From Candidatus Omnitrophota bacterium (GTDB lineage: Bacteria; Omnitrophota; Omnitrophia; Omnitrophales; Aquincolibacteriaceae): 44,045 nucleotides of DNA. Location: assembly GCA_041585205.1 (NCBI GenBank), contig JBFHCO010000001.1, positions 1-44,045 of the forward strand, read 5' to 3'. Under the pieces are notes generated by a model. The model saw only the letters and a list, made by a program, of their open reading frames with translations, made no database searches and had not been told where the DNA came from. The position numbers were made by a program, and so were the translations under genes. Position 1 is the stretch's first letter; each line of letters opens with the position of its first letter. Shown piece by piece: positions 7,101 through 40,263 of this stretch.

Positions 7101-10100
7101 ACCGCTGTAACAGCAAGTGATGTGACGGTTTGATCATTCTGCCGGGAATATTCGGATCCGGCTCGGCCCGGTGGTACAATAATTCTTTCAGCATTCCCAT
7201 CATGGCGGTCAAATCCAAAATGCCCCACAGATTATGCGGACTGAGGGATCCCGCCCGCAACTGCTCGAGCAATTTCAGAAGCTGATTGCGGTCCGGAATA
7301 TGACGGCGTGATACGATCGCACTATTGATTTGCCTGATGGTTTCTCCGACATCGGATGAGATTTCCTGATCCGCATCATGATCGATGGAGCCGAGCCGTT
7401 GCGTATTTAAATCGAAAACAAAATTCTCCGCCTTGCGGTCCTGGACGTTAATTCCGACTGCGTTTGCGTCATGTACGAATTGAAGCGCCTGCGATACCGC
7501 ACTGAATGTTGAATTCCAATCAAGCTTGCCTTCGTCATGGAGGCGGCTTAAATCCTCTCCTTCCAATCCTTCAAAAAGCATCGCCGGTCTCGACATTTGC
7601 CGGCCGTCTTCCAAGGTGTAGTTGATGACAGTTAAGCCGATTGGTCTTTGGACGGGAAATGAACGGTCGGCCTGACCGGTTACGCTTTGAAGAATCCGTT
7701 CGGACACCTGATAGCGCATCAAGCTTTGTTCCATTGCCTCAATTTGTGAACTGGCTCCCAATAAAGGTACCGGACGTGCCTGTCCGTCACGCACGATGCG
7801 GTCTTCGGTGCGCGCAATTCTTAAGAATCGGTTTGTACCGCGCTGTCTGTAAACATCCGCATAACCGCCGCTAGTGACGTATTCCAATTCCACCGGAGTC
7901 GGTTGGCCGGGATAAGTCACGGCTATGATTAAGTCATCGATTAAACGTGAATTGTCCTTGGGATGCGGCCTGAAACCCGCATAATTAACCTGAGATGTAA
8001 CGGTCGCCTGACCTGACGCGATTTGAAATTGCCCGTCTTGCACCCCGAATTGAACCGGTGTCAAATCCAGCACATTGCTGGCATCATCCTCCGTGACAGG
8101 AAGTGCAATCGATTCATCCGCATCGACCCGAAGCTCAGAGCGCGTCAATGCGCTGCCCAATACAAATCCCTGATCCTCCTGAATTTCCTGCGCCTCGGTG
8201 AACTCAGCGGTGTCTTGCCTCTTTATATCCGAGCGGGCTGCGGACTGAGATATTGCGCTTTCGATTTGAGAACGGGTCTCGGCACGAGTTTGAGGTTGAG
8301 TCGCCAACGGGCCCGTGGTCACGCGGATGTCACCGATATCAACGGTTCGGACAGGTAATGCTCTCACATCCTGTTCGGGAGATTGCGTCTGAACGGCTTG
8401 ATAGGCTGCTGACAAACCCGCGACAGCGGTACCGGCATCCACACCCGCACGCTGAAGACCTGTGACAAGCGTCTGCGCGGCCGTGTCGACTCCGGGACGT
8501 GCAAGTTCGGCGCCAAATTGGCGCTCCAGCTGCGCGGCTTGCCGCTCGGTTTGAACCATCCGCTCCGCCGTGCGTATCATTTCAGGCGTCACAATCGCGG
8601 GCCTTGCTGCCGGTACAAGCTCCGCGGCCCGTCCGAGAACGGGAGCAAACCCTTCACGCGGAGGAATGATCGTGGCAAGGTCAGCAATAGCCCGTGTCTC
8701 GGCGCGCGATATGCCCGTCCGTATCGTTTGCAGGAATGTATTTGATTGGGGCGCTCCGGGATTAAGTACAACAACACCTGTCGTTTCAACCGCAGCCGGG
8801 CTCACGGCACCGGCCTGATCGATCAAGACAGAGACGTTCTCGGCGGTCAATGCTTTCCGCTCCGTTAAAAATTGAAGTCCTTCCGTAAAGGCATTAAGCT
8901 GAACCTGAAAATGATTCCATAAGTCGGAGAGAGTTTTTTCCCGGAAGGCGTCCAATTCCTCCCGGATAATGGACAGGATGTCCTCCCTTGAAGCAGAGGC
9001 TGGACCTTCCCCGCCGAAGCGGTCGCGATAAACCTTAAAAAGCAAATCTATGTACTGCGTGTACTCTTTGGCTTCCGCGATGCGGCCTTCCTCATTCAGC
9101 TTACGTATGACATTGTCGCGCCACAGCTTCAACGCCTTGCGGAAGTCAGGCTGATTGAGCTCCGCCACCAGCTTGGCCGTCGAATGCTTTGCGAAGGCGT
9201 CATAAAAACTCACATCCAAATCACGCTTGTAGGAAAGCCGGCCGTGCATGAGCTCCGGATAAAACTCATGACCTGCAAGTGAACCGATATTAGGCATGAT
9301 GACAAGATACGATACGCCTTCCGCATCGAGATTTTTTTCGAACCCTTGCGTATGAAAACCACCCGCGACCACAATGGCCGCTTTGGCTTTTTGCTGTTTG
9401 AGTGTCTCCATTAAATTCCGCTTGAAGGCTTCGTCGCGTTCAAGTGCCAAGCGGTAAAATTCCAGGGCGGATTGAAGGTGAGCCCGGGAATCTTTTAACA
9501 GATCCAAGAAGCCGTCCGGATCGTCCCGGAATTCATCAAGCTGCGCCCGCGTCACTTCCAAATTAGCCAAGTCCCCCAAAAGTCTGAGCCGTCTGTAGCG
9601 TTCGATCAACTCACGCTCTTCGGGCTTTTGCACCAGATCATTTTCGATATCCCGGAAAAGGGCTTCCAATTCGTCAAAGAGCTTGGTGCCTTTAATGCTG
9701 GCCAGTGTCTCGCTATGGCCGATCAGCCGCATCATGGCCGGCGTGAGGCGGGGCTTCAGTCCCATTTTGCGCCCGATTTCCAGCATGTATTTCAGGAACT
9801 GGCCCGGCTCCATGCCCCCGGTCACATAGGTTTGATAATTCCGGTGAAACTGCATTTCGTCTTTGATGTTCATTTTTTTCAAAAAGCGGGACTTGAATGT
9901 GGCGGCCATCTCGCGCACCTGCCCGTCCACATTCTCCTGCTGCTCGGCGGCGGATTTTTCGAATTCAAAGGAATCGTAAAGTCTGCTCAGTTGCGGGTAT
10001 TGTTTGATTTTTTCCGAGGCGCCCTCGAGGTCTCCCAGGTATTTGAGAAGCTGTAAAAGGTAAGCGTTTTCGGCCTCGAACGCTTCACGGTGGGCGTGAA

Positions 10101-10719
10101 ATTCTTTGAGTTCTTTTGAAAAGAACTTCTCGCGGCGCTTGTCCAAATCTTTTCTGAGTTCCCCGAGAGCCTGATGAACCGCTTCCTTGTCGCCGTAGGC
10201 GCGTAGATAGGCGTAGTAATTGCGTTCGTACAAATCCCAATCTTCAATTCCGTAATAGCGGCCCTCCTTTTCACTGAAAATCGCGGCCGAACCCGCGCCC
10301 GTGATCTCACCTTTTTCAAGATAGTCCTTGAAGACTTTGGATTTCACCAGCTCATCCGGAAAAGACCGGAACAGTGTTAAGTCCAGCTTCCCGGCGGCGC
10401 CTTCCAAAGCCACCAAATCAATTCCGTAATGGGTCTGCAAATATTGAATGAGCTTTTGAATGTTATGCTGGGCATCCAGCACGGCATGGGCGTTTTGAAT
10501 GAGGATCACGAAGGGGCTGCCGTTACCGTTTTGTGAAGCGACCTGAATGGATGCGAATTCGGTCGGAATTTGCACGCCGTCTGGAAACGGCACCGCGATG
10601 CCGGCTTTCGTGGACAAAGGCACCGCCGCGGGCGGCTGCGCCCATGTCGCGTTGGTTGCGGAAAATATCAAAATTGTAAGCCAGGCCAAGATTCTGAGTT
10701 TTCTGAGTGAATGAATCAT
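1183..10719 (-). CDS. Giant (3,178 aa) exported multidomain protein: TraB/TIKI-like N-module, kinase-like domain, phosphohistidine swivel plus ATP-grasp (PPDK_N-type) dikinase module, shared C-terminal tail
   Basis: Uninterrupted 3,178-codon frame with ATG at 10717-10719 and TAA at 1183-1185. The N-terminus MIHSLRKLRILAWLTILIFSATNATWA/Q is a typical Sec signal peptide (basic n-region, hydrophobic core, A-x-A-like site). The start overlaps the stop of the upstream HTH gene (ATGA). Confidence 0.9.
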   Translation of the reverse strand: MIHSLRKLRILAWLTILIFSATNATWAQPPAAVPLSTKAGIAVPFPDGVQIPTEFASIQVASQNGNGSPFVILIQNAHAVLDAQHNIQKLIQYLQTHYGIDLVALEGAAGKLDLTLFRSFPDELVKSKVFKDYLEKGEITGAGSAAIFSEKEGRYYGIEDWDLYERNYYAYLRAYGDKEAVHQALGELRKDLDKRREKFFSKELKEFHAHREAFEAENAYLLQLLKYLGDLEGASEKIKQYPQLSRLYDSFEFEKSAAEQQENVDGQVREMAATFKSRFLKKMNIKDEMQFHRNYQTYVTGGMEPGQFLKYMLEIGRKMGLKPRLTPAMMRLIGHSETLASIKGTKLFDELEALFRDIENDLVQKPEERELIERYRRLRLLGDLANLEVTRAQLDEFRDDPDGFLDLLKDSRAHLQSALEFYRLALERDEAFKRNLMETLKQQKAKAAIVVAGGFHTQGFEKNLDAEGVSYLVIMPNIGSLAGHEFYPELMHGRLSYKRDLDVSFYDAFAKHSTAKLVAELNQPDFRKALKLWRDNVIRKLNEEGRIAEAKEYTQYIDLLFKVYRDRFGGEGPASASREDILSIIREELDAFREKTLSDLWNHFQVQLNAFTEGLQFLTERKALTAENVSVLIDQAGAVSPAAVETTGVVVLNPGAPQSNTFLQTIRTGISRAETRAIADLATIIPPREGFAPVLGRAAELVPAARPAIVTPEMIRTAERMVQTERQAAQLERQFGAELARPGVDTAAQTLVTGLQRAGVDAGTAVAGLSAAYQAVQTQSPEQDVRALPVRTVDIGDIRVTTGPLATQPQTRAETRSQIESAISQSAARSDIKRQDTAEFTEAQEIQEDQGFVLGSALTRSELRVDADESIALPVTEDDASNVLDLTPVQFGVQDGQFQIASGQATVTSQVNYAGFRPHPKDNSRLIDDLIIAVTYPGQPTPVELEYVTSGGYADVYRQRGTNRFLRIARTEDRIVRDGQARPVPLLGASSQIEAMEQSLMRYQVSERILQSVTGQADRSFPVQRPIGLTVINYTLEDGRQMSRPAMLFEGLEGEDLSRLHDEGKLDWNSTFSAVSQALQFVHDANAVGINVQDRKAENFVFDLNTQRLGSIDHDADQEISSDVGETIRQINSAIVSRRHIPDRNQLLKLLEQLRAGSLSPHNLWGILDLTAMMGMLKELLYHRAEPDPNIPGRMIKPSHHLLLQRFRPNGQHMSIAADDFEFVSVDRKAPDGSILLDEKGDVQKFHYYQHKRMPNEVFPLDQFLTGLRKRDEGSRMDLLAHQAYAVNATRMAESMQREMGLDELPPALESSVRALSQKIIDIETEIEQFAINGKRNPARRFAPADPDGNYIREVMTEIIQDVQKLQLILSQSRRVQEGVMTDEELREISQALEKEAPLPTTVRPQTYPAKPEEVADTAKEISTRRTARSEIRSQQDGDVEFDPDLGFVIGSPRSEDLPSIPLEEADDDEGAVSLPPARMAQLMGLKQDAASDLMLQIRQRIGPNGKAREGLVDQLGEETVAELESLLPSNFRDWPLNGFQDSLFVSKEAALNLIKNLRRARTILGESEYQSAIRPFNSLSAVRFIYLSDQNLTNMSLADPSVHESETDISQLGLRVTEHAAGALESFLPENIQITSVNPEFKTMLIYGMPKTNADPGVKGQIKVKVNQFFELVEINNRILMRLGSLPAHPNRSAELEAIMDLIDSMVARYQSIVSELTYTPEYDDGSAFERFISDARETRRFADMAVNMEAYSREMKLVRPILQEVKSIGRIYRMGTLNGFINLVHQKALDAVHKSIEKFEVSSIKAQLGIVKAPQIADLIMDVGDAEEGKGVVEIIDLDGTMAITDHPAANLIASTFRRVPKSVLKGHAKYTFFVNDEGYVIGDLSLGGHSATVHIDDRPLDEGGAIYLNYTDVNELRFNLIQKAFEQMGFAVETSSTKIQQTLRANFNKDAGTLRPGYNRANYIAELLQDMMWVVFTAKDIDYAIANSDDNTNFGDDYIAALEQDGGYVPWWAHIWYNELKSGPGKLGNLRSHELQALRRNIDRMSESALKSYKAQREALVRGELPSAVSEMLSDLGLDPIPAGSKLGQREIDRYVNDAIQNALLRGQIRIVMKDGKGTLEKNENYNPALSMVNSLRNLPGDSEELKNGIESAAYLNAIQSILNFETVSTVGAAFYQRALVKDKNGETISVHVLRDIASGQIIYAQTEQTVRRPGAFEISDIKLKNVMERLGSSFPVTANAVQIAGKQRMAQAVLNQTDVERVLPKEQAIFKGLASSPGVKTGRLVYNKQNLKDGDIYLAPYTTPDDNPIFGMEIGMVTTQGAEQSHAALTARGAGIPHIILRDVFWLKGKLHLRSLQAVDGSRQVVDGVETYQVQTTDIELAEGAQVTVDGATGRLIIHGEEGPEGALPIQPEGTEGPSGQIDDATLEVWMKREAQAESAWNVRQQASRAAGVDLSDRDFVRLDETGLDSEAVDMAALVQTMGGKGANLAVMSALGLPVPQGFIVTTNVFQELLDPALRDAIDRRMDEIQRKFNEAGRRLTPALEKEIAGILESIRADILDTEIPPQIENGVQDEFEKLGAERVIVRSSAVDEDSDKPFAGANLTTPDVPSGNLMQAIILNFAALYHPNSIWYRLNNGLNLKQLNHAVVVQKMIKSKKSGVVMTNDPNTLNQNRIIINIARTPGEDVVSGIADTDRIIYDKETGEIEVKVRQGQSEWAFDDLIEFYSLIENAIKIEKYYMDMRDIEFVYDDDEGLQIVQSRRGEASKEAVRQLVERSNRPAMGPITERQFTRETAPGDPGEMRDTATESPDRAEVDTETGQTKRSEMRPGAMDAMLRTPLVSLSGETRESMISASLRESPEALNRRLGDQARSELRRVEDYLQGQTVRVNQALEEETTINSILAKLFSPQLAQMLAMGTRGFVMLDKVRATVAPRLVDFFVAEPTVTTIDTTGIDIQGVSALLGNWKALNEAHIEKHGVPLFPGTIPEIRTLLIPEILLPDAGQTEARQAAGEFLSRNFDRAALAFFLGRNQSDYEPTQFLRENPMLLDSGWNDVNKPIEERRLVRNGMGKTPLIVAEIGSPFEFQSDTQMKEYGVMLREGVARSFGRIPGIRFADQVNALKLLVTVDAFKSKTRTDSQLPFPEAIAESISFMLRYVNSLLDTQAAQLAVERAA
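2420..3342 (-). other. PPDK_N-type ATP-grasp nucleotide-binding domain
   Basis: LVQTMGGKGANLAVMSALGLPVPQGFIVT (GGKGANL at 3241-3261), VIVRSSAVDEDS..FAG, SGVVMTNDP, PGEDVVSG, IEFVYDDDEGLQIVQSRRG. These are hallmark motifs of the PEP synthase/PPDK N-terminal domain. Here it lies C-terminal to the swivel domain, which is a permuted order. Confidence 0.75.
3595..3897 (-). other. PEP-utilizing-enzyme mobile (phosphohistidine swivel) domain
   Basis: GLASSPGVKTGRLVY ... MVTTQGAEQSHAALTARGAGIPHII. The putative phospho-acceptor His codon is at 3730-3732. This matches the GGxxSHAAIxARExGIP signature of PPDK, PEP synthase and rifampicin phosphotransferase. Confidence 0.7.
7180..7917 (-). other. Protein-kinase-like domain
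   Basis: Gly-rich SGGYADVYR followed by FLRIAR. Catalytic-loop-like VQDRKAENFVF (DRKAEN at 7423-7440; compare HRDLKPEN). IDHD at 7375-7386 lies 19 residues after the putative catalytic Asp (compare the HRD-to-DFG spacing). Confidence 0.45.
9230..10560 (-). other. N-terminal module, copy 1 (TraB/GumN/TIKI/ChaN-superfamily-like putative metal-dependent hydrolase)
   Basis: Ordered motifs: FVILIQNAH (IQNAH at 10486-10500), LVALEGAAG, YYGIEDWDLY, ALERDEAF, VVAGGFH (GGFH at 9352-9363). The pattern of an N-terminal His, a mid Glu, ERD, then G-G/A-x-H matches my memory of the TraB/GumN/TIKI family. It is paralogous to the modules at 11359-12930 and 38690-40160. Confidence 0.5.
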
Positions 10720-11144
10720 GACGCGCCTCGCTCGCCCGCTTTCGGACTGCCATCGGATTTGCGCTCCATCACAATCCCTTCCATTTCAAACGACCGAACA
10801 TTGCCGTTTTCCTGAATTTTGAAAACGATATGAACCGAGTCCCCAACCCCCAAATGACGAAATGCCGATTCGCCGGAATTCACCAGGAGAACCGGCCTCG
10901 AGCATCCGTGAGACATGCCATTTCCGTTTGTCTCTCCCTGCGTTCCGGAATGGCTCAAAAAGGAATGAATATCATCCGCCTTGTAGCGCCAATGCTTGCC
11001 AACCTTGACACCCTTGATGCGGCCGCGCTTGCTTAAACCGTAAAGCGTGGATAAAGGAATTTTCAGATAGAGGCACACTTCCCTTGCCGTTAATACAGAC
11101 TGACTATTCATCTCGGGCATGTCGATCATTCGCCGTTTCTCCAA
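10716..11144 (-). CDS. Excisionase-family (MerR-superfamily, HTH_17-like) DNA-binding protein with a small C-terminal beta-rich domain
   Basis: LTAREVCLYLKIPLSTLYGLSKRGRIKGVKVGKHWRYKADDIHSFL fits the excisionase-type HTH. The TGA at 10716-10718 overlaps the ATG at 10717-10719 of the 3,178-aa ORF. The track start is a TTG at 11142-11144. An ATG at 11127-11129 with GGAG 9 nt upstream is the more likely start. Confidence 0.75.
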   Translation of the reverse strand: MEKRRMIDMPEMNSQSVLTAREVCLYLKIPLSTLYGLSKRGRIKGVKVGKHWRYKADDIHSFLSHSGTQGETNGNGMSHGCSRPVLLVNSGESAFRHLGVGDSVHIVFKIQENGNVRSFEMEGIVMERKSDGSPKAGERGAS

Positions 11145-11358
11145 TAATTGCTGTTATCGCTAAGCAGAACGCAAACTGATTGCTTTAGCTTGCCAAAGCA
11201 GCTTAATTTTCTCTCTAGTTACTACTTTTATAATTCTTTTAAATACAATATAAGTATCGCATCTGTGCGGGTGGGGTACAAATGCTGGGAGGTAATACCG
11301 AAGAAATGCTATATTTTGCTAGCTATTGATCCTTTGAAAATAGCATCAGGAAAGGGCT

Positions 11359-12930
11359 TTACGTTGCAGATTCAAGATTTGCGGCTTCGGGGCTATCCCC
11401 CATATGAAGGCGTGTTGTGCGGAACCAGGTGCTGCCGTCGCCCCATTTCTCGCGTAAAACTTCGAAATAGGGGCTCGGTTCCTGTCTGATTTGAAATTTC
11501 GGAATGATGCTCAGGATGGATATTTTTTTTGCCTCAAATTGCTTGATCAGATCTTTGGCGTGAAAACCGCCGATCACGAGGGCATAGATTTTCTTCTTAT
11601 GCATGCGCATGAACAGAAGCGAATTTTCCACAATGGATTCTTCGCGCTGCCTGGCTAATTCATAGATTTGAACGGCGCTTTTCACATAGGCTTGAAGCTC
11701 CTGAAATGATTCCTTATCGTCAAGCAAAGCGCGTAAATCTTCCCGCTTCCAGACCGGCTCGAAATTATTAAATTCGGCTTCATCCCTGGGTTCCCAGCGG
11801 ATATCAAATAATTTTCTGACCAAATGCGCATAGTCCGACAGATTGGCGACAATTTTTGCATCATGATCCGGCAGCTCCTGATCCCTGATGGTTTTATAGA
11901 GTTTCTCGGCCTCTGCGTACGTCGCCTCCAAATCCGTCCCGATCAAGCTCTGGATCACCAGCAAAGCCCGCTCAATTTCTGTCACGGAATATTTTCCGTA
12001 GGCATCCGGATTTTCATTTTTAAGCCGCATCAGCGTTTCCAGAACCGCGGCCTCCCCTTCCGTTCCGGGGATCATGCGCGCCGCGTGCAAGGGGTAGAGA
12101 TCTTCCTCTGACAGCGTACGCGTGAGCACGCGCAGCAATTCCTTCTTTTCCAATTCCAGCTTACTCTGATCCAACGCCTTATTTTTGGCCTGTATCTCAT
12201 TCCACGCTTCCATATGCAGCGTTTGTTCCGCCGCGATACCAAGCGCTTCGGCGCGGCGCGTGAGCTCATCAAGATATTTGAACAACACAGAAACATTTTG
12301 ATCTGCCTGCCGACGCAGTTCGGAAAGCGCTTCCAGGGCCGGCGGGTAAAACCGAGTTCGAAGTTCGGACAGATTTTTTTCAAGCGTCTCAAGCGTGGCC
12401 AGCGCGGTTTTTTGGTTTCCGTAAAAATCGAGATAGGCCTGCATGTTTTGACTGTAAAGGACGGGATCTTCGACGCCCCACAATTTCAGATCCTGATCCT
12501 CGAGCGTCAGATCCAAAAACTCCTCAGCTGATAATTTGCCTTGCTTCAAGTAGCGCAGCGCCACGGTTTGCAAATGACGGGGGTCCACACCATTCCGCAT
12601 ATAGGACAGGTCGATATTGCCGGATCCGCCCTCCGCCATGACATACTCCAATTGATAATATTGGACGAGGTAGCGGAGGATTTCGATCATGCTTAGCTGG
12701 GCTTCGTAGCGCGCATGCGCGTCTTGAATGATCACGAGCACGGGCGCCTCAGAATCCCCTGATTCAACCGTGCGCTCCGTGATGGCCAAATGGGAAGGAA
12801 TGGTGACGGGAATGGGGTCCGGATCGGCTGCCGCAGAGCCTATCATGATCTGCGCCATGAAGCCCGCGGCAATCGGGAGCAAAAGCGTTCGAAACAGCCT
12901 GCATTTATTATGAGATGTCCGGTCCGCCAT
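11359..12930 (-). CDS. Exported stand-alone copy of the TraB/TIKI-like N-module (523 aa from the ATG)
   Basis: ATG at 12928-12930 with AAGGTG 7 nt upstream (the track uses a TTG one codon earlier). Signal peptide ...LLLPIAAGFMAQIMIGSAAA/D. Motifs VLVIIQDAH (12715-12729), VMAEGGSG, LWGVEDPVLY, ARQREES, LVIGGFH (11560-11571) are colinear with the N-termini of both giant ORFs. Confidence 0.85.
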   Translation of the reverse strand: MADRTSHNKCRLFRTLLLPIAAGFMAQIMIGSAAADPDPIPVTIPSHLAITERTVESGDSEAPVLVIIQDAHARYEAQLSMIEILRYLVQYYQLEYVMAEGGSGNIDLSYMRNGVDPRHLQTVALRYLKQGKLSAEEFLDLTLEDQDLKLWGVEDPVLYSQNMQAYLDFYGNQKTALATLETLEKNLSELRTRFYPPALEALSELRRQADQNVSVLFKYLDELTRRAEALGIAAEQTLHMEAWNEIQAKNKALDQSKLELEKKELLRVLTRTLSEEDLYPLHAARMIPGTEGEAAVLETLMRLKNENPDAYGKYSVTEIERALLVIQSLIGTDLEATYAEAEKLYKTIRDQELPDHDAKIVANLSDYAHLVRKLFDIRWEPRDEAEFNNFEPVWKREDLRALLDDKESFQELQAYVKSAVQIYELARQREESIVENSLLFMRMHKKKIYALVIGGFHAKDLIKQFEAKKISILSIIPKFQIRQEPSPYFEVLREKWGDGSTWFRTTRLHMGDSPEAANLESAT

Positions 12931-12955
12931 CAATAATCACCTTAAGCTAAATAAT

Positions 12956-12984
12956 ACTCTATACTTAAGAATTCTTACTATCAA
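12956..12984 (-). promoter_or_regulatory. Candidate sigma70 promoter for the 523-aa gene
   Basis: On the minus strand: TTGATA (12979-12984), a 17-nt spacer, then TAGAGT (12956-12961), about 25 nt upstream of the ATG. The spacer contains a perfect 12-bp palindrome, taagaattctta (12966-12977). The region is AT-rich, so chance matches are possible. Confidence 0.3.
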
Positions 12985-13031
12985 TAATTAGACGAGCCGA
13001 TCAAGGAGGCTATTCGAATCAAAAAGAAACG

Positions 13032-13105
13032 CGCCCGGGACGGGACTTGAACCCGCAACACCCAGATCGACAATCTGGTACTCTAACCAATTGAGCTACC
13101 CGGGC
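13032..13105 (-). tRNA. tRNA-Asp (anticodon GTC), no encoded CCA
   Basis: The reverse complement folds as a cloverleaf. Acceptor stem GCCCGGG/CCCGGGC, D arm GCTC-AATTGGTTA-GAGT, anticodon arm CCAGA-TTGTCGA-TCTGG (GTC at positions 34-36). Variable loop GTGTT, T arm GCGGG-TTCAAGT-CCCGT, discriminator G. Confidence 0.9.
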
Positions 13106-13125
13106 AGGTGTTAGAGAAGACGGAT

Positions 13126-13154
13126 ATTGTAGTCAGGATGGCACCGATTCTCAA
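13126..13154 (-). promoter_or_regulatory. Candidate sigma70 promoter for tRNA-Asp
   Basis: On the minus strand: TTGAGA (13149-13154), an exact 17-nt spacer, then TACAAT (13126-13131). This lies 20 nt upstream of the mature tRNA 5' end, and each hexamer matches consensus at 5 of 6 positions. Confidence 0.5.
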
Positions 13155-13199
13155 GGGAAAAAGGAACGCCCGGAAAGAATCGGAACGGCTCGGACGAAA

Positions 13200-13319: not shown

Positions 13320-13320
13320 A

Positions 13321-13353
13321 CAAAAAAAGCCCCCCGGATTAAATCCGGGGGGC
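13321..13353 (-). terminator. Rho-independent terminator of the 8,957-aa ORF
   Basis: On the minus strand: GCCCCCCGGA-TTTAA-TCCGGGGGGC (a perfect 10-bp GC-rich stem, 13329-13353) followed by TTTTTTT (13322-13328). It starts 36 nt after the TAA stop. Confidence 0.85.
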
Positions 13354-13389
13354 GCCCTGGCAAACCGGCCCGAACCGACGCAGTATTGC

Positions 13390-16300
13390 TTACGCCGCCC
13401 GAGCGGTTTCGCGTTTGCCCGCGAATTGTGCCACGATATTGGACAGAATCGCGGAAACTGTTATTTCCTGGCTGCCCGGCAGGGTAAGATCTCTGTCGGT
13501 TGCGACCACGATGCGGCCTTCGGCCAATTTCACGGCACCGATCAAGACACTTGTGACAAGTTCCGGTGCCGCAAGCCGCGCCGTTTCATCCACGCGTACT
13601 TGCAAGGTGTCATTGAGGGTGAGCTTGCGCGCCGCGGCAAGCTGTTCAATGAAGCCTGTCAACGTCCAAACCGCACGGATGTCGAGCTCATCGGCCACAA
13701 GACGCTTGACCGCCAATTCAGCCGCAAAGTCATTTCGGACTTGAGCCAGCACGTCTTCAGCGCCCGCCATAGCCGGATCGATGAAGAGCACGAGCTGGGT
13801 TTCACCTGTCAATTGTCGCAGGGCCTGTTCGATAAACGCCCGGTCATAAGTCTCGACCGACACTTCAAGAACATAAGCACCCGCCACATCAATATGACCC
13901 GGAACCAAATCCACCACGAATGGTACCAAGTCGTTTGTTAATTGAATAATTTCATTTTCAAGATTCATTCCAAGCTCCAATGCACGCTGATTCAAAAAGG
14001 CGATTTCCTGTTTCAATTGCTGCATCGCCGCAGCCGCTTCGGAAAGCGCGACCACTTCGACAAACTCCGTTTCACGGCGTAACTCGGCGCGTTGCACATT
14101 CGGCATGGCATCCATGATGGCCTTGCGGCGCTTTTCGCTGATTTCGCCGCTGGTGACAAGCACGGATAAGGCATCCAAAAGCTGTAAGCGGGCTTCGGTG
14201 GCAACGCGCTTAAACTCGGATCCCTCGGGCTCCGCATCGATGCGTTTGTCCATGGCTTCAAAGACCTGTTCGACCTGAGCCTGAGAAGCGCTCGGAGCGC
14301 CCAGTTTTTCGAATGTTCGAACGGCGCCCTTGAAGATATCGGGATCCGTCTCCTGGTTTAAAACGGCGCGCAGGGTTTCCACTTCATGACCGCTGTAAAT
14401 GCCGTGCTGACGAATGACATCCATGGCTTCGGTTTTCATCGCTTTTACGGTTTCAGGATCCCGCTCATTAAAAAGCAGCCAATGCGTGTAAATCTGCGCC
14501 AGCATTTCACCCGGTACTTTCAACTGTTTTGTCAATCCTTCGCGAATTGTTTGACGGACTGACGCGCTCGTATCGACATCTGCCGGATTGGTAATTTTCG
14601 TATCATTATTGAAACCCAAAGACTCGGTCAGGAGCTGAACAATGCGCGTCTTCACATCCCTTTCGGCTTTGACGCCGGTGCGGACCAGCGCATTGACGGC
14701 ATCCACACGAACGCCTTCCTCGCCATGTTTCAAGCCCTTCTGATAAATATCAGTTAAATCGTTATTGTTCACTTCAACCGTCATCGACCGTAATGCACGA
14801 ATGGCTTTACGGCGGACAATGCCTTCATTATCCGTCACAGCATCTGTTAATGCCGCAATCGCTTTCCGGCCCCCCAATTGGGTTAGGGCCTCGATCGCAG
14901 TCACACGCTCTTCCAAGACGGCTGCTTGCGTTTCCTGATCCGCTCCCTGCGGACCCCGGTCCTGCAAGCGCGGAATAATTACATCCGCCACGCGCCGGTC
15001 ACCGACGCGGCCCAAGGCACGAACGGCGGCCACGCGAATTTCAGGATCCGCATCTCCCACTTTGACGCTCAGCGCCTGAATGGATCGCTTATCCGCCAAT
15101 TCACCGAGAGAAGCCAACGCCTCGAGTTGAACGGGCTTTTCGGGGCTTTGCAGAGCCATCACATCAAATTGCACCAAATCTTTTTTAGAGGCGTTGAGCT
15201 TTTTCAACGCAACGCGCGCAGCGAGCCGGACCTTCTCATTCGCATCCTCGCCCACAACTTGACCTAATGCTTCGATGGAGTTGCGCGTTCCTATTTGACC
15301 CAAATTTTCGGCGGCCGCCAATCTGACTTCAGGTTCCGCATCCTCGGTCAACGATTCCAAAAGAGTGCTTTCAACCTGCGCGGCCGGAAATTGACCCAAA
15401 ATACCCACTGCAAGGACACGCTCTTCCGCATCCGCGGTTCTCAACTTTTCCGTCAAAATGCTGACTGCCTCCGGTTTGCGAAGCGCGCCAAGCGCCTGAA
15501 TCGCATCACGACGCACGCCCTGACTCGGATCATTCTGCAGTCGGTCCAGCACTACTTGATAAACAGCATCGCGCAGGGACTCGTCTTTAACACGCGCTAC
15601 CGCATCCGCGATCGATTCGACGATTTGGCGTCTCATCAACGCGGTCTTGTCGGGATCCGGCTGAGTTCCCGGCGCCGGCTTCACGCGGTTTAAAACATCC
15701 GTGTAGATTTCTACCAATTCTTTTTTGTTCCGATACCCTGCTTCCTTCAGGCCTTCGGCGACCGCAAACGCCACATCGGTCACATCATTTTTCTTTGCGG
15801 CAATAGCGCGCATAATTTTATTACGAAGTTCACGCGTTGCCGCGGTCGGCTTTTCGACTCCATCCAATGCCACCGCCAATCTGGCCAAGGCCGTAACCGC
15901 AGCTGCGCGCACTTGCACGCTTGAATCATCCAATCTCTCGATCAAGGCTTCCGCCACGGAAGGTTTGGGATGTTCCAAAACACCCAGTGTTTCGGCCGCG
16001 TCCCGGCGCACCCCCGCATTCGTATTTTCAAGCGCGCGTACATACACCGCGGCCAATTCATCCGGATCAAGATCCAGTTCTCTTAAAACACCCCGCACGG
16101 CATTACGCACGTCGTGATTCGGATCCACGGTGCGGGACTTCAGCGCATTTTGGATCGACGGGGCAATCAGATCAGGATCCGTCTCAGCAATATCCATCAG
16201 GCCTTCCGCCCCTTCCCGGCGTATGGCGGCATTATCGTCGTTATTCAATGATTTCACATAGACATCGGATGCCAAGCGCGCCTTATCAATATCAAGATTG

Positions 16301-19300: not shown

Positions 19301-22300
19301 AATCCCTTAGCCGCCTCCTCTTCCGCGCGGCGCGCTTTAGCTTGAATATTGGAGATAATCTCCAGCATATGCATATGAAGAGACGCATTATCACCCTGAG
19401 CCGTCCGCCATTGCGCGCCCTTGTTGATGAAATCCTCGAGCGGATCGATCAGCTGCTCCTTAGCCGCGGCGTCTTTCACATCAAAGAGTTTTCTCACGAA
19501 ACCATCCAACAGCTCTTGCTGATGGCCGATTTCAATGCTTTCAAAAGCTTTCGTGATCGATTCAAACGTCCGCTCGGGCTGGGATTGAACGTACCGGACA
19601 ACCGCCTGATACAATTCGCGATTGAGCTTCACGGCGCCTTCTCTGCCCTTATAATTATCGTCTCTCAGGAAAACTGAAAATTCCTTATCGCGGATGCCAG
19701 CGCCGGAGCGGTCCTTGCGGATTTGCTCCATCAACTCTCTTATTTCCTCACTGTCCTCGTAGCGAATTTGATTTTTCACGAAATCAGCCAGCCGGGCTCC
19801 ATACCGCTCTCCTTTGACCAGCCGCTCGGCTATAACATTACGCAAATCAACCGCTGCACGCAATTCGGAGCGTTTTTCAATGCGGCCCGCATCCTGCAAT
19901 TTATGATAAAGCGCTTTTTCCGGTTCGCTTTCCCCGCCGATTTCGACAAAAATGGCCGCGGCATCCGCCGCGTTCATCGCATAAGTCATGATCGGATCCA
20001 TGGCCAACCGCTTAATGGCGGGCCAGGCATGCTGATCAAGCGCATACGCTTGTGCTTTGGCGATATCGCCGGGATAACGGGACTGAGCAAGCATGCGCGC
20101 CGGTTCGTCCAGAACTGTGTGCCAGTAAGTATCTATGGATCCGTGATCAGCAATGACGTCCTGTATAACCCACTCGCGGACCTTGTTGATGCGGTCCAAA
20201 TATTCCTGTGGTATTTCTGAAGCAACGCGATCCAAAATGGGAGTTGCGCTTGGCTCTTCTTCCGCCACCGGTTCTTCGACCGGCGCCTCTTCAGCCGGAA
20301 CTGGAGCCGGTGTCGCAGGCGCTGTTGAGCGCGCTGCTATCGCATCCGCCGCTATCTGATGAATGCGACGCTGGCCGAACCACAAGAGCACATACTGCTC
20401 AATCATCAAGTTGGCGTAATTGTTGATTTTCTTCGCATCGGCCTCGGGATGCTCATCCAGCCATTTTTTGAAAACAGCTTCATACTCCCTATCGCCGAAA
20501 ACCTTCGGAAATAGTGTGCTTAAATAGGAACCTCTGATCCAAGTCCAGACACCGATCATATAACCGATAATACCCAGATAAATCGCGCCGTAAATAATCG
20601 TGTTAAAGAATACCGAGAAATACCACGGTAAACGCAGGATTTCAGAAAACATCAACTGTGTCGGCAAGAGAGCGCTCGCGCCGCCGTCACCGGTCGGAAT
20701 ATAAGCGCCGATCATCGGCATACCGGAAAGTATGGGCGGACCCAGCGTAAAAAATGCCGCAATCGCAATAATCGCAACGCCGTGCAGCGCGGCTGTCCAG
20801 CGCGTGCCCATAGCAGCACCGGGATAAGTCGGAGGCGTACCGGGAGTCTTTTGAACGTTTGTCATGCGGCCTATAAAATAAGCGATGCCCGGACCCATAA
20901 TAAATGACGAAATAAGAATCGGGCCTGCGCGCATCACCAAATCAGCCGGAATCACACCCGCAAACAGCGGCCCCAAAAATCCCGCGGCAATTAAAATCAC
21001 CACCGTCGCAATGGAGCCAAAATACACCAATTTCGTTTCAGGTACTTGTTCCTTCTTCATTTTTTCAAATGTTTCTTTATTGATGGTCATGGAAGCGAGC
21101 GGAAACAGGCCGAATAATATAGCCGCAATAATTCCGATCCAGGCATAAGCTGTCAACCCCAGGAACGTAGCCTGCGCGACGAAGGCAAGCGGCGCGAATC
21201 CCGGCAAGGCCAAAAGGACGATGCCCAATCCGATATTAAAGACGAGGCGCATTTTCATCAGATAGGCAGGCAGCGGTAAGGTCCGTTGACTCTCCTCAAA
21301 AGAAGGCCATGTCCCCTCGCCCTTTTTGCCGCTGAGACGCTCTCTCATTTCCTTGTAGACACGAATTGTTGCCATCATCAGTTCATATTGTTTGATGATG
21401 ATTTTTTGAAGATAGACACCGGTCGAGGCCACAAATTCAAACGCGGCCGACGGAATATCAAGGGCGATAAACCATCCGATTTGCTTTGCGGGATATTTCA
21501 CCCAACGGTCGAAAAAGCCGCTGAACTCCCGGGGCGACCCGTCATCACGAAGGGGTGGATTCACAACGGCATAAAGCCGGTTGAGCAATCGGCCGGTAAA
21601 CTTGGTATGCACAAGCGTGATCATGATGAAAAGGAACAGGATTTCTCCCAGAAACGGGAAGGCCACTTCCAACGTTCCGGGATGAATCATCGCATAGAAA
21701 GTGATGATCAGCTGAACCAACCAAATCGGTTCCGAAAAGAGTCCGCGTGTGACCTGATTTTCCGCGTATTTTCCGCGCAACGGAATTTTCGGAAGCCGGT
21801 CATATTTTAATTTTTCAATCGGGGCCCTTAATTTTCTTTTATCATTATCTGTCAGCGCAGTATTTTGCTCGATCATTTGCAATATGGCGTCAGGGGCCTC
21901 CATCCCGGCCATGACATTGGTCACATATCCCGTATCGGACGGATGGAAAATCGTCGCCGGCAGACCGGGTACGGCTAAACGCTGCAACGCAGCGCTCAGA
22001 TTGTTTAATTCAGCGTTCACGCGTGCGTTCAGATCCGTAACATTCTCCGCGCCCGCCACAATATTGCTTATCTTTTCTTGATACCATTTTTCAATCGCTG
22101 CAAGAATTTGATTATTCACATCCGAGCCTGCGATGACGCCTGTCGCGCGAATTTGCTCGAGCAGATAATAAACGATTGCGGCCTTGATTTTACCCTGCCC
22201 CACCGCATGATAGAGTTTGTGGAAAATGAACGCGAGCACACCCGAGAGAGCGCCCACACTGAGAAAGAGAGTCGCGTAGGGCGCAAGAAAAGCCGTGATG

Positions 22301-28300: not shown

Positions 28301-31300
28301 CGGATAAACTCCGCGTCCGTACCGGCGGGATAAACCTGCGTCCACTGTTTGTAATCAATGCGGTCGGCGGCTTCCCTGGCATCAGCGGAGAAAACACCGT
28401 CTTGCTTCAAGAACTCCAGATCCTCACGCGAAACATTCAGCACACCCGGTTCGAGCATTTCCTGAATTTGTATTTTTAAGAAAATGACATGTTTTTGAAT
28501 GGCCCGCTTAATATCCGGGTTCACTTCCAAGGTTTTTTCAACGATGTTATCCGCCGTGGCATGGGGATCATTCAGCATCCCCTCGGGCAAGTGGGCCAGT
28601 AAGCGCATGGCGAAATAATCATAAAACCCAAGCAAGCGCAAATCGACGGCCTTGTCCAACGCCGTTGCCGTATCCAGGCCCATATAGCCTTTTTGCTCGC
28701 TCGTTAAAGTGTTGGAAAGATGCTCATCCCAACGCACACCTAATTGCGCCGTACGGCGGACACTTTCCGGAAGTTTATCAATGAGAGCTTGAATCTGACT
28801 GACCGGCGCATTCGCATCCGCGCGGGCACCGAGATAACCTTGCGCCGTCAATGCTCTCAAGAGCTTAATCCGGACCTCATTTTCGCGCTCCGTCAGCCCG
28901 CGCGCCTGGCCGGATTTGACCAGAATGTCATCCACAAAAACCGCCTGCGTCACGACATCGCCGATTCTTTCCTCTTGGGTGACTTTATCCGTCACTTTGG
29001 TCGGCTGCGTTAAATTGATTCCGTAGATGCCCTTGGCGACTTCGGCGGCATCCGCGCTTAAATTATCATTCAGAACATTTGTTTTGGGCGTATGCACCGG
29101 CGCCTTGATTTCAACGGAATGCTTTTGGGTCAGGGTGCGCTCGACGCGCGTGCGCTGATCCCCCGCCTCCTTGGTAGCGGCATCCAGCGCCGTGCGCATC
29201 TGTTCCATGAAAGCGATTTGCTGTGCGATTCGAGCCCTCTCGGCCACAACTTCCTCGGCTTTCACGGGGACTTCCGGAGCGCGTCTTGCGATTTCACGGC
29301 GCAGGAGCTCTTCACGTTCGCGTGCGGCGACGGTTTGCTGGTCGGCGCGGTAAGGCAGTTTTTCATAGCGGACTTCCCGCAGAATCTGCACGCCGTCCTT
29401 TTCACCGAATTGCTGCAGCGTATGGCTCAAATTGTTGACGGATTTGTTGAAGTCATTGTGGGCCGCAATCAATGAAAGTTCGGCAATATTTTTGCGGTCC
29501 AAGGCCGTAAACAAATCGGAGCTTTCAATTTTTTTATCAAGATAAAGCCGCAGCATATCCTGATAGCGGTCCTGCGCCATCACATAATCGCCCAGTCTTT
29601 GATAGAGATTTCCTTGCGCGCGCAGATAAGCATAGTATTCGTTCAAGGCCTGGAAACGGATCGAATCGACAAGACTCGGTACCTGGCTGGCTGCGAGTTT
29701 CTGCTTCATTTTTTCGATTTCAATGCGGGCATCGCCTTCGGCGTTCAACAAGTGCAGTCGCAGCTCAATTACCCCGTAAAGGAAAGGCTTCACGTCATCA
29801 ATGGTTCTGTCGCCGAGCGCACGCTTTAAATCATCCATATCCCGGCTGCTGCCGAATAACTTTGATATCCCGGCGGCAAGCGCCACGCGGGATGAAAGCC
29901 AGCGTTCCCAGGTCGACTGAATTTCCCTTAATTTGCCGATGTCCATATTCAGCAGAAAGGCTTTCAGCTGCGGGTCATTTTCGGCAAGCCGGACCAAAGC
30001 CTCGGGTGTGGTCGGGGCCTGATCCACGATCGCCTGCACCACATTCTCTTCCGCCGGAACGACCACTTCCTTTGCCTGCGGAATATTCGTGAGGGTTTTA
30101 AAATTCGTCAGCGCATTCTGATAAGCCCTTTCTTCGGTCGTCGCTTGATACTGCTTTCTTTCGTGATAATCCCGGGCCTTGTTCTGCGTGGTTTCATCGG
30201 CTTCCGCACGCTGTATCATTTCATACAGGGCTTCGAGTTCATCCGCCTGCAGCTGAATCGCATTGGCGAAACCGCGCTGACGCGTCACGTCATAAATCAT
30301 GTTGTGCGTCACGCGTTTTGTTTCATTATTCAGATAGGCTTCTGCATGTTCGAGCTGTCTGGTTTCAAGATCAGCAATGTTATGCAGCTGGCTATACAGG
30401 GCTTCCAATGGATGATAAGCAAATTCAATACCGAAAGAACCGGTAAAGAATCTTTCCGTGCGCCCTTGAATGCCCGGGATCGGCGGATTCGGAGCCGGTT
30501 GAATGATGGGCAATATCGACGGAATATCGATATCCTGAGGAATCAAGCTTGCCTGCGCGCTGATCGTAAGATGGCGCAACCAACGGGTTTTGTGCCTTAA
30601 TTCCGCGACCGCTGCCGCCGTTTGCGTGTTGAGATAAGCGACGCGATTCACCATCGTATCTTTGACGCCTTCCACATTTTCCGGTTTAGCCAGATCCAAC
30701 GCACCGTCCGTGCCGCCCATTTGCTCAAAGCGCCTTTGCTGCTCGTTTGTGTCCGCGGGCGTGATTTGAATTCCCTCGCGGGAGGCAAGGTTTAATTCGG
30801 TGAGCGCATGATTCAGGGATTGAATCTGATAATTATCTTCACGCTGAAGCGTATCGAGCTCCTGCGATAATTTCCAAAGTTCCGCCAGATCGCGGTCGGA
30901 GGTGCCGGCCGCTTTCAATTTATCCGCGAATATTCTGAGTCTGTTTTGCGACTCATCATGAAGACGGCGGCTTTCCGCCAACTGATCGCGTGTGTTAAGA
31001 TTCGTTCTTTCAAGCTGATCCTGATAGCCCCGGTTTCCGTTGCGGGCGGCTTGAAGCGCCACATCCGCCTTGCGAATGCCGTACTCCGCGACCACGCGGT
31101 CGACCGCCAAATCGGACATTTTGCCGAAATGGGCCAATTCGACGGAGGTGAATACGCCGGGTCCGGTGCGAAGCAATAACGGAACCAGTTCCGCCCGAAT
31201 GCCCTGATGCTCATTGGCGATGTCGTAAACGGCCCAGGCGATTAAGAAGTCTTCTTTCGGAATGCGGTCCACTGCGCTCGGGTCAAAATCCTTCACGACG

Positions 31301-34300: not shown

Positions 34301-37300
34301 AAGCCGGAAAGCGTCTCGACGAAATAATCGAGGAATTTATTCTTCAGGTCCTTGCGTTCATCGAGCTTGCGGCCCACTTCCCCCTGACGGAAAAGAACAT
34401 CCGACAAATCCTTGGCCAGATGCTCGCGCAGCAAATTGCTGTTGAAGCGGGATTCGATAATTTTCGTAAAGGCATCGGCCAATTGATCATGGAATTCATA
34501 AAGTTTCGCCACGTCGTCGCGGGAATAATCCGGCTGCGGATATGAATACAGGACATATTTGTCTTTAACGGTTTTCTCAAGCGCGGCTTCAAAATGTTCG
34601 CGCTCGGCTTCCCAAATCCGGTTGTCCGTCGCGGCTTCGAGCTGCTCGATAAAATAGTCGACAAATCTTTGTTTTAAATCGACGCGGCCGCGCAGCAAGC
34701 GCCCGACAGCGCCTTCAGGAATCAAGGCATCGTCCAATTCTTCGGGTAAATTGGAGCTGAATTCTTTGTAAAGGATTTCGCGGTATCTTTGAATTTCGGC
34801 TTCACGCACCCGTTGCTGGCGTTCGAGCTCCCTCAGATCCTTTTGACGCTGTTCAATCGCGCCTTCCAACGCTTTATCAAGGATACGCGTCATCCAGTTT
34901 GCGAACCCGCCGACCGGGCCGCTTTTGGCGGCTTCTTTCGCATCCTCCACGACTTCCACCGGGGGTTTCGCATTGCGAATGGCGTCGCTCAAGGCACGCA
35001 CGCGGTCGTTTAATTCGGTGATGCGTTTTTCATCCGCAGGCACCCTGCCCGCTTCTTCATTGAGCTGGGCGGTGGCCGCACGGCGCATTTCGCGCAACTT
35101 TTCTAGCGCGGCTTCAAAATCCTTCTTGGTTTTGGCGTCCTGACTTTGACGAATGACCTCTTCCGCGCTTTGCAGAGCCAACCGTTCTCTTATCCGGGCG
35201 GCTGCCGCTTCCATTTCCGCTAAGAGTTTATCGACGTCCGCTTCCGGCACTTCTTGAGGAGCAAGCACTTCCGGCTTGGGCTCTAATTCTTCAAGCAGCT
35301 TTTCTTCTTCGCGCGCTACTTCGACAGGCTCTTCCGTCACGGGTACCGCTTCAGGAGTGACGGCAGGCGCTTTCGCCTCTTCCTTTTTGGTTGCCTTGCC
35401 GTAAATTTCAAACAGCTGCAGGCTGTAAGCCATTTCATTCAGTAGATTGGCTCTTTGTTTGTCATCCGCCGGGCGATTGGCTTTGACTTGCGCGAGTTCA
35501 TTTTCAAAGGAACCCGCGATCCGTTCATCGATAACTTTCCGCTCGCGCATATCCGTCAGCACATTTCCGAATTGCTGAAGGGTTTGAATTTCAGCCGAGC
35601 GCCAGCCCTGCAGGGCCAAATCGCCGGCCTCGGTGTGAACGCCCATCCAGCCCAAAACAGAGGCCGTGGCTTGCATGGTGGTATCGGAAATACCGATACC
35701 GGAATAGGATTCCGCTTTGTTCAGAAGATTATGGCCCCAGTTGATGGCGTTTAATTCGACGAATTCAACCGGGACAGAGATGAATTTAACGAGGGGTTGG
35801 TCGCTGCCTGTCACAAGATTATAAACGGGTGTGGCGGTGTATTTGTCAATCCATTGCGCGGCGCCGTAATGCAGCGTAGGGTCGGGCGTTTCACCCTCCG
35901 GGACATGATGACCCGCCAACCCGGCGATTTCAGCGCTCACAATTACCAAACCGCCCCAGGATTTAATGAAAGCGAACCAAAAAGTGCTCAAAGCCAATGC
36001 GGCAAAGAATCCAGAAATCGGGGCAACAACGTAGCGGTAGAAATAGCCGGGCGCTTTGACTTCAGGCGCGACAGCCGGTGGCGCGCGTGGCGCTTCAGTC
36101 ACGACTTCGGCCGGAATGGGCCGCTTTTCGGCTTCGTCCACCAACCGATTTAACAGTGCTTTTTCGGCGCTTGTCGCAAAACGGACATGCGGCAATAAGG
36201 AACGCAGTTCCAAAACCACATTGCGTTTTTGATCTTCCGGCAAATTGGTTGAAGCGGAAATATCGGTGATTACTTTACGCACGGTCGCGAAATCCAAATT
36301 GGGTAGCTTCTTTAATTGATTGATTTGTTCGATGACGGCTCTATCAATGCGCGCGTTGGACAACTTAGCGGAAAAGTTCGGAATCGTGAGTAAAAATGCT
36401 AAAATAGCTGAGTTGGTAAGAGAACCAAGGGTCAAGGCATTCGCCAAAGCACCTACCACGATTCCTATAATAGGAATTCCCGCTACCCCACTCACAATAG
36501 CCGGGCTCAAAAGGCCGATACCCGCCACGCTGGCAGGCATCAACACCGTGACAAGGCCCATACCGATCGCGCTGAATATAGCCAACTTCCAGCGGCGGTA
36601 AATAAATTGAGATGTTGAAGCAACGAAGGGTTGAATGAGCCATTTGTTAAGTCCGCGGCCGATGCGGCTTGGAACTGAATTGCCATAGCGCATCTGTGCC
36701 GCGCGGCCGACTTTTAAATCCTTGGCATTCAGCATGGCGCCGGCCAACACGTCTAAAGCAATTTCACGCGGCAGCGGCGCAATGCGGCTGCGGAACCAAT
36801 GAAAGCTGATTTTGCGGCGGTAAAAACTGAAAAAGAAGGAATCCAAAAGATGCGGACCGAGCATTAGGATTTTTCCGATCAACTTCCCGATAGATAAACG
36901 CGGAGAGTTGAAAAAAGACTTGATGACATAGCCGGTCTTGGCCAGCAAGGTGTTGCCCGGTATGGGTTCTTTGTGCGGCTGCGCATCCCGGCGCACATAA
37001 TGAAGTTCGGCCGCCTTTTCAAGCTGTTCATAAACATAGCGCCATTGTTCAAGGGATGCATCGCGCGTTAATCCGGTTACCGCTGCAAGCTTATCCAAAT
37101 CGCCGCTGTCAAATCCGTAAGCTTCTAGAATACGCTGAATAATCGCTTCTTTTTCGGCGTCGATACGAATCGCTTTGACCTTTTTAAGATCCGGCAGCGC
37201 CTCCCCCGCATGCTTTGAGACAATTTCTTGAATGACATCCTGAAGGCCGGGTGTCACCGCAGGCGCCGGAGCGACAGCCGGTTCCGCGGGCTTGACTTCT

Positions 37301-40263: not shown

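Follow-up and report, generated by a model that had tools for sequence, protein, structure and literature searches.

Candidate Ere/ChaN/TIKI-superfamily hydrolase domains at the head of, or beside, giant proteins of Omnitrophota

Introduction

The giant proteins of Omnitrophota rank among the longest predicted in any organism, and a question that they raise is whether each works as a single chain or is cleaved into parts. Their analysis is blocked by the absence of known cleavage points, and their N-terminal regions 'generally lack identifiable domains', C39 and S8 peptidases excepted (10.1101/2023.11.21.568195). The C39 and S8 domains, which occupy a position near an N-terminal signal peptide, have been proposed to cut the giants into smaller polypeptides (West-Roberts et al. 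2023, 10.1101/2023.11.21.568195). Here we took up this question at a locus where two giant open reading frames (ORFs), and a short one between them, share an N-terminal module that we call the head. The locus is a stretch of 44,045 nucleotides from a Candidatus Omnitrophota bacterium (assembly GCA_041585205.1, contig JBFHCO010000001.1, positions 1 to 44,045; hereafter the window). All four long ORFs in its ORF list lie on the minus strand. The giant C8957 (13390..40263; 8957 aa, head plus body) comes first in the direction of transcription after the 1065-aa ORF D1065 (44025..40828). It is followed by the stand-alone head B524 (11359..12933; 524 aa when read from a TTG at 12933, 523 aa from the ATG at 12930 used in the NCBI annotation) and by the giant A3178 (1183..10719; 3178 aa, again head plus body), giving the order giant, stand-alone head, giant. 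The heads carry a conserved set of residues known from hydrolases, and their place in the genome points to work on or with the giants.

Three paralogous heads

The first ~500-570 residues of A3178 and of C8957 align colinearly with the whole of B524. BLASTP matched the A3178 head to the C8957 head at E 1.8e-37 over 587 columns, the A3178 head to B524 in two segments (E 1.8e-18 and 6.7e-09) and B524 to the C8957 head at E 1.9e-15, with pairwise identities of 21-32%; past about residue 570 it found no similarity between A3178 and C8957. The hidden Markov model (HMM) of the family recognised the head domain of A3178 (9205..10638, minus strand, aa ~28-505) at E 4.7e-128, B524 at E 4.5e-141 and the head domain of C8957 (38626..40167, minus strand, aa ~33-546) at E 2.8e-150. 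The three modules are true paralogues.

Each head begins with a signal peptide, which we read by eye as a basic n-region, a hydrophobic core and an AxA-like cleavage site (TWA before Q in A3178, AAA before D in B524, AWA before D in C8957), with an N-terminal helix of low confidence in the structural model of B524 as a further indication. In A3178 it spans aa 1-27 (10639..10719, minus strand; MIHSLRKLRILAWLTILIFSATNATWA before Q) and in C8957 aa 1-32 (40168..40263, minus strand; ending in TAFVVAAIFTTTTVAWA before D), both read from the sequence. In B524 it spans aa 1-36 (12826..12933, minus strand; ending in LLLPIAAGFMAQIMIGSAAA before D), with a hydropathy segment at aa 13-31 and the low-confidence helix at aa 13-30. 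The sequence-only reading, made from the letters of the window, had proposed the paralogy of a 523-aa protein with the first ~500 aa of both giants, a signal peptide on each module and a series of shared motifs. These points are borne out here: IQxAH, EGxxG, GxE, AxxR[DE] and GGFH are all present and aligned in the three heads, and the distance from the first His to GGFH, put at about 380-405 residues, measures 378 in A3178, 385 in B524 and 405 in C8957. The orthologues of B524 (P0002, P0009, P0027 and P0038) are likewise stand-alone.

A very large family without a name

We searched exhaustively with an HMM and a five-sequence alignment, counting representatives of clusters at 50% identity. 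The yield was 9782 clusters at E<=1e-3, falling to 6661 at E<=1e-30. Among the best 150 of the 9782, every head match begins within residues 1-92, and the proteins among these best 150 are either ~470-580 aa long, corresponding to stand-alone heads, or 660-7853 aa. A word-indexed homologue search gave three relatives with B524 and two with a small alignment. When one genome per species was scanned, the alignment of the closer subgroup (A4) recovered 69 loci, nearly all in metagenome-assembled genomes of Omnitrophota, with some labelled 'uncultured Planctomycetia' and one Eisenbacteria; the same scan with B524 alone as query gave no match.

The family members that we looked up are named 'hypothetical protein' or after another domain. 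A full-text literature search returned no paper tying Omnitrophota to TIKI, ChaN or Ere, and a 2026 preprint on long Omnitrophota proteins makes no mention of such an N-terminal head. The head is a new, very large and unnamed family, probably inside a known superfamily, and its architecture and context are new.

Probable assignment to the TIKI/Ere/ChaN/TraB superfamily

An AlphaFold2 model of B524 made from a 38-sequence alignment (pLDDT 86.5, pTM 0.81) has strands at residues 50-56, 65-71, 97-100, 104-106 and 150-154 and then at 449-455 and 472-478, the two halves of this alpha/beta core being separated by an all-helical insert (aa ~157-445, 11599..12465 on the minus strand) delimited by DSSP of the model. 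A core-only model of residues 44-162 and 414-492 was compact (pLDDT 93.1). In both models the core has a central parallel beta sheet flanked by helices, as in solved members of the superfamily. Foldseek ranked EreC (6xcs/6xcq) and Bcr135 (3b55/2rad) highest among PDB entries for the full model, with probabilities of 0.98, 0.96 and 0.82 and an E value of 3.5e-3 for 6xcs. For the core model it returned ChaN (2g5g; 0.94, TM 0.44), HopBA1 (5t09; 0.99), Bcr135 (0.80) and EreC (0.77). The EreC, Bcr135, ChaN and HopBA1 families are recognised members of the TIKI superfamily (PMC6254334).

The insert itself had low-probability Foldseek matches (0.1-0.2) to MakE, SmhA/SmhB and AhlB/AhlC, which are alpha-pore-forming toxins of the ClyA family; with probabilities of this order we did not adopt a ClyA-type toxin bundle as its interpretation.

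Profile searches pointed in the same direction. When 38 family members were scanned singly against Pfam with a cut at E<=1, PF04187 (ChaN, Tiki superfamily) appeared below threshold in 17 of the 38, and the next most frequent family in 6. The best of these matches (P0141; 27.1 bits, E 5e-06) lies just under the PF04187 gathering cut-off of 27.7 bits. The match covers the Arg...GGFH region of the relatives, corresponding to profile positions 159-207 of 213. Among insert-deleted cores, obtained by aligning the spliced B524 core to full-length relatives, ChaN again appeared below threshold in 12 of 24, and PF05139 (erythromycin esterase) in one (E 0.16). Support from TraB was of a different order: PF01963 (TraB/PrgY/GumN) had no Pfam match in the window modules or the relatives, and hhalign against a 40-sequence PrgY/TraB alignment reached P 1e-3 to 3e-3 with only the RD...GxxH half aligned. 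Since the hhalign comparisons, with PrgY alone or with the TraB alignment, were weak and mis-registered in the N-terminal half, we do not count them as support for TraB membership.

We consider it very probable that the heads belong to the TIKI/Ere/ChaN/TraB superfamily. This was also the assignment of the sequence-only reading, and its core stands on the sub-threshold recurrence of ChaN, the Foldseek matches and the catalytic spacing described below; what changes is the nearest relative, for the head looks nearer to Ere/ChaN than to TraB/GumN/TIKI proper. Its suggestion of running the three window modules against PF01963, PF04187 and PF05139 produced no match, at E<=1 in the case of PF04187. 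Its description of the site as metal-dependent is not supported: catalysis by Ere and RRSP, which are the closest structural relatives, needs no metal (PMC7979712, PMC6254334). Its further proposal, that the module is protease-like and serves to process the giants, stands as a hypothesis.

A conserved Ere-like catalytic set

In B524 the putative active site comprises the motif IQDAH (12715..12729), which places acid-x-His at the end of the beta strand at 65-71, Glu101 (12631..12633), 28 residues past His73, and the stretch from Arg430 to the GGFH motif with His458 (11560..11646), these two residues again lying 28 apart. The equivalents of these three elements, all on the minus strand as in B524, are at 10486-10500, 10402-10404 and 9352-9438 in A3178 and at 39985-39999, 39901-39903 and 38770-38856 in C8957. 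The positions are thus D71, H73, E101, R430 and H458 in B524, N76, H78, E106, R428 and H456 in A3178, and D91, H93, E121, R470 and H498 in C8957, to be compared with E47, H50, E78, R261 and H289 in EreC (PMC7979712). In RRSP the set is E3900, H3902, E3930, R4001 and H4030, with spacings of +28 and +29, and in Bcr135 H85 and E113 are also separated by +28 (PMC6254334). All three window heads have His-to-Glu +28 and Arg-to-His +28, and both spacings are those of EreC.

Conservation of this set extends across the family. Among 152 heads sharing ~20-30% identity, [DE]-x-H is present in 150, and the first His and the Glu in all 152; the Arg and the second His are each found in 151 of the 151 heads that cover the position. 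In the model, these residues sit at or just past the ends of strands 65-71, 97-100 and 449-455 and on the helix that precedes the last catalytic strand, an order of secondary structure that is consistent with their clustering in one pocket.

A non-catalytic head, either a ChaN-like module binding haem or another ligand or a fast-folding cap or anchor outside the membrane that aids export or tethering, is an alternative that we regard as improbable. Haem-binding ChaN is the recurring Pfam family and the top match of the core model, the head is the first part of the chain to emerge after the signal peptide, and the residues Q70, Q79, Y160, Y424 and Y489, which are invariant and specific to the family, lie outside the Ere catalytic set. 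Against it, the full Ere/RRSP set is kept in ~150 of 152 heads at this level of divergence, which argues for selection for chemistry beyond that for the fold. Moreover, as described in the next section, giants with a separate head have a signal peptide of their own, so export does not require the head in cis.

Coupling of heads to giant proteins

Across the related loci, matches of the head HMM were confined to N-termini, one per protein. Where the head is a protein by itself, a giant is commonly next to it. Downstream sequence of 3 kb or more was available for 32 complete stand-alone heads; in 22 of these an ORF of 1000 aa or more comes immediately after the head, and only one of the 22 ORFs carries a head of its own. 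The two genes often overlap or sit a few bases apart, and in two further loci (L003 and L008) the giant begins 500-600 nt off, just outside the counting window. A giant also lies upstream of the stand-alone head in 11 of 31 cases. In L013, L029 and L030 the gene after the stand-alone head is glmS (N-terminus MCGIVGYIG...) instead of a giant; L029 has a giant of more than 3200 aa immediately upstream of the head, and the partner may therefore sometimes be the upstream gene. A B524-type head with an A3178-type giant after it is also present in L001, a JGI contig, at 42% identity. From this gene order, a 'stand-alone' head appears normally to be the split partner of a giant. The linkage of head and giant, as a fusion or as neighbouring genes, argues for joint working.

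The head-less partner giants bear their own signal peptide and, within ~25 residues of it, a position-specific tag. In one clade the tag reads [LA]-R-[PKQ]-x-[SA], for example DHLRKPS, DKLRPKA, DALRPLS or AMLRPQA, and was seen in nine loci (L011, L015, L020, L021, L022, L039, L041, L042 and L047). It is confined to the position after the signal peptide in most partners, three having one further loose match. In another clade the tag reads ARPLS...R[SA]E[LV]R.

These observations bear on a second alternative, in which the head is a TIKI/Ere-type hydrolase effector acting on external substrates (prey envelope lipids, peptides, polysaccharide esters or small molecules) and the giant merely delivers or positions it. 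The evidence from fold and catalytic residues applies to such an effector equally, other TIKI-fold domains are effectors, such as RRSP in MARTX toxins, PMT and HopBA1 (PMC6254334), and Omnitrophota giants have been proposed to help in attaching to prey and digesting cell walls (10.1101/2023.11.21.568195). In giants, however, shuffling normally varies the position of effector domains, while the head is N-terminal throughout the best 150 of the 9782 matches and occurs once per protein, and when split off it stays beside a giant. The bodies behind the heads are mutually unrelated; a common effector on unrelated carriers is conceivable, but a part in the making of the giant accounts for this more simply. 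We therefore view the effector reading as rather unlikely.

A linear motif enriched in headed giants

The bodies of the window giants contain a short motif, R-[SA]-E-[LVIMT]-R, whose first copy after the A3178 head lies at aa 672 (8692..8706, minus strand), with further copies on the same strand at 8272-8286, 8128-8142, 6421-6435, 2224-2238 and 2080-2094; C8957 has copies at 38011-38025, 19858-19872 and 14077-14091, also on the minus strand. Counted as R-[SAT]-E-[LVIMT]-R, A3178 has 6 copies against 0.066 expected, with none of 500 shuffles above 2, and C8957 has 3 against 0.23 expected. Across 101 headed giants there are 191 copies against 7.0 expected, a 27-fold enrichment. The first copy lies a median of 250 residues past GGFH, and the flanks of the motif are less hydrophobic than random windows (0.285 vs 0.321, P 1e-13). 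We speculate from these sequence statistics that R-[SA]-E-[LV]-R is a candidate processing or recognition site. NCBIfam has no model for the R-S-E-V/L-R motif. It was also observed just past the signal peptide in some head-less partners, and one copy (R-[SA]-E-[LVIMT]-R) stands at aa 655 of D1065.

Comparison with known systems

The Ere and Bcr135/136 proteins (PF05139; 6XCQ, 6XCS, 3B55, 2RAD) are the best full-length structural matches of the head and, like it, combine an alpha/beta core with a helical part. They share an acid before the His, a Glu at +28, an Arg and a His 28 apart, and a water-activating mechanism without metal (PMC7979712). Ere is a protein of ~410 aa that opens macrolide lactone rings, whereas the heads have a Sec signal peptide and are found on or beside giants. 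The His-to-His distance is 378-405 in the heads, reflecting a larger helical insert, and 239 in EreC, and the acid is at -2 in the heads but at -3 in EreC. RRSP (DUF5), the C1-C2 part of PMT and HopBA1 also have the TIKI fold; RRSP resides within a very large secreted multi-domain toxin and has a set of two His, two Glu and an Arg in which the acid stands at -2 and the Glu at +28, the Arg-to-His distance being +29 (PMC6254334), and HopBA1 (5T09) is the second-best match of the core model, with a probability of 0.99. RRSP, however, occupies an internal position and, as an effector, cleaves host Ras/Rap1, and HopBA1 is one of the type III effectors, while the heads are N-terminal, present once per protein and found in environmental bacteria thought to be predatory or host-dependent.

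ChaN (PF04187; 2G5G) provides the recurring Pfam family, through the Arg...GxxH region, and the top match of the core model. It differs in being small (255 aa in the PDB chain), in having no large insert and in being known for haem binding rather than catalysis. ChaN is a lipoprotein by name and so presumably lies outside the cytoplasm, where TIKI and PrgY are also thought to place their domain. Mature Wnt has its N-terminus trimmed by TIKI, and the peptide that PrgY controls comes from a signal sequence; this N-terminal or peptide processing resembles the trimming of partner N-termini that we propose below. For TraB/PrgY, hhalign pairs ERD...GxAH with RD...GGFH of the heads, but the profile match is weak (P ~1e-3) and leaves out the N-terminal His motif. 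The conserved C-terminal half of PrgY is hydrophobic, suggesting a membrane anchor at the C-terminus, in contrast to the signal peptide at the N-terminus of the heads. TIKI requires metal (PMC6254334). The peptidase domains mentioned above, C39 and S8, share with the heads a position near the N-terminal signal peptide (10.1101/2023.11.21.568195), but are unrelated to them in fold and catalytic type. The head itself went unrecognised in that study.

Proposed role of the heads

Taking these lines together, we favour, as somewhat better than an even proposition, a reading in which the heads are exported Ere/ChaN/TIKI-superfamily hydrolase domains coupled to the giants, with maturation or trimming of the giant itself as the favoured function. 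We infer hydrolase chemistry from the fold and the motif, and the giant as substrate from context only. The head would consist of a Sec signal peptide and an alpha/beta core with a parallel sheet, interrupted by ~290 residues of all-helical insert. It would be exported first and would fold on the outer side of the cytoplasmic membrane, where, by analogy with EreC, the His/Glu pair would activate water and the Arg would stabilise the oxyanion or transition state, no metal being needed. It would work with a giant to which it is fused at the N-terminus, as in A3178 and C8957, or which is encoded by a separate adjacent gene, as for B524, and would trim or cut the chain that it belongs to or adjoins. 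Exposed linear motifs are candidate targets, be they linkers with R-[SA]-E-[LV]-R or the tag located at a partner's N-terminus behind the signal peptide. A bolder form of this proposal makes the head the missing maturation enzyme, a TIKI/Ere-type peptidase that is exported first and cuts the emerging giant at R-[SA]-E-[LV]-R linkers in this clade or at the [LA]-R-[PKQ]-x-[SA] tag in others; in so specific a form we think it unlikely.

Several results weigh against the favoured reading. No model matched the three window modules in Pfam and NCBIfam scans, and none of the family members scanned reached a Pfam gathering score. Queried with A1, A3, P0141 and the core alignment A5, the PDB sequences yielded nothing credible in profile or sequence searches; matches to calmodulin, myosin light chain and MoaB were set aside as spurious helical or Rossmann-like similarities. 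The comparison of models with solved structures that the sequence-only reading had called for did place EreC, Bcr135, ChaN and HopBA1 on top, but with Foldseek E values of 3.5e-3 to 7e-2, none at or below 1e-3, and TM-scores of at most 0.44. The motif of the A3178 head is IQNAH: Asn takes the first acidic position, as in only 2 of the 152 heads, and, judging by this substitution, the activity of this head may be altered; the neighbouring stand-alone B524 retains Asp there. About one third of stand-alone heads have no giant directly after them, and in the window itself the giant that follows B524, A3178, has a head of its own, and between B524 and C8957 lie a terminator-like hairpin and a tRNA gene. 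Finally, the R-[SAT]-E-[LVIMT]-R motif is clade-specific, being present in 44 of the 101 headed giants and absent from the other 57 and from whole partner clades, and therefore cannot be a universal site.

Marginal statistics of this kind throughout, down to the hhalign P of ~1e-3, speak for a further alternative, in which the resemblance to TIKI/Ere/ChaN is convergent or due to chance and the head is an unrelated Rossmann-like alpha/beta domain with a new function. Generic three-layer folds (thymidylate kinase, KaiC) do appear in the Foldseek list, but nearly all other folds there have lower probabilities than the superfamily members, mostly of 0.1-0.3 with a few at 0.4-0.57, class II photolyase entries reaching 0.51-0.57. 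Three independent lines converge on one superfamily, and a chance match is made unlikely by the agreement of five catalytic positions in order, structural location and the exact +28/+28 spacing (PMC7979712). We accordingly give chance or convergence little credence and retain the superfamily hydrolase reading.

Giant bodies and neighbouring features of the window

Internal repeats in the giants were ruled out, self-BLAST showing none. The hydropathy scan predicts ~15 transmembrane segments in C8957 and none in A3178 besides the signal peptide, and cysteine is absent from both. In the middle of C8957 lies a TolC-like OEP (outer-membrane efflux protein) domain (29419-30000, aa 3422-3615, E 4.3e-11), and HEAT repeats are found at aa ~7845-8435. 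A3178 contains a PEP-utilizers domain (aa 2296-2398) and PPDK_N (ATP-grasp; aa 2484-2774), together at 2398-3834, and this order of the PEP-utilizer (mobile His) and PPDK_N parts is a circular permutation relative to PEP synthase. Since the protein has a signal peptide but lacks predicted membrane segments, it would be an odd location for ATP-dependent chemistry. Further towards its head, A3178 (aa ~1080-1270, ~6900-7500) reads ...GGYADVYRQRG..., then ...NVQDRKAENFVFDL...GSIDHDAD..., which by eye resembles a catalytic loop of protein-kinase-like type (D-x-K-x-x-N) with a DFG-like motif after it; this stretch had no Pfam match at E<=0.01. When D1065 and the giant bodies were compared by BLAST with 70 related loci, no conserved partner gene emerged, and just the PPDK-like and HEAT regions were common.

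Between the C8957 stop and the B524 start is a tRNA-Asp (GTC) gene (13031-13105, minus strand; Rfam 68.7 bits, with ARAGORN in agreement). Directly after the C8957 stop is the terminator-like hairpin (13329-13353, minus strand), with an 11-bp stem containing 9 G-C pairs and then a run of seven T. Promoter-like sites precede the tRNA gene (13126-13154, minus strand; 10 of 12 consensus matches) and B524 (12956-12984, minus strand; 9 of 12). Because of the hairpin and these sites, which are consensus matches only, C8957 and B524 are probably separate transcription units. A 142-aa ORF (10716-11144, minus strand), whose stop codon overlaps the A3178 ATG, encodes an excisionase-like helix-turn-helix (LTAREVCLYLKIPLSTLYGLSKRGRIKGVKVGKHWRY) and has a single weak relative in L053 (E 2.7e-06). 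D1065 has no signal peptide, no Pfam or NCBIfam match and no BLAST homologue among the 70 related loci. The G+C content is ~0.47-0.55 along the window.

Significance

A conserved and, to judge from its residues, apparently active hydrolase domain heads many proteins of ~1,000-9,000 aa (up to 7853 aa among the matches listed, and 8957 aa in the window) or is encoded in the adjacent gene. The family numbers ~9800 clusters at 50% identity, has no model in Pfam or NCBIfam and so constitutes a sizeable annotation gap. The head is a sequence marker for finding giant genes and, at ~490 aa, a small soluble target for biochemistry and structure. Together with the R-S-E-V/L-R motif it yields a concrete, testable cleavage hypothesis for Omnitrophota. 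If the head is indeed a maturation peptidase, the giants would be polyproteins whose cleavage points could be predicted from sequence.

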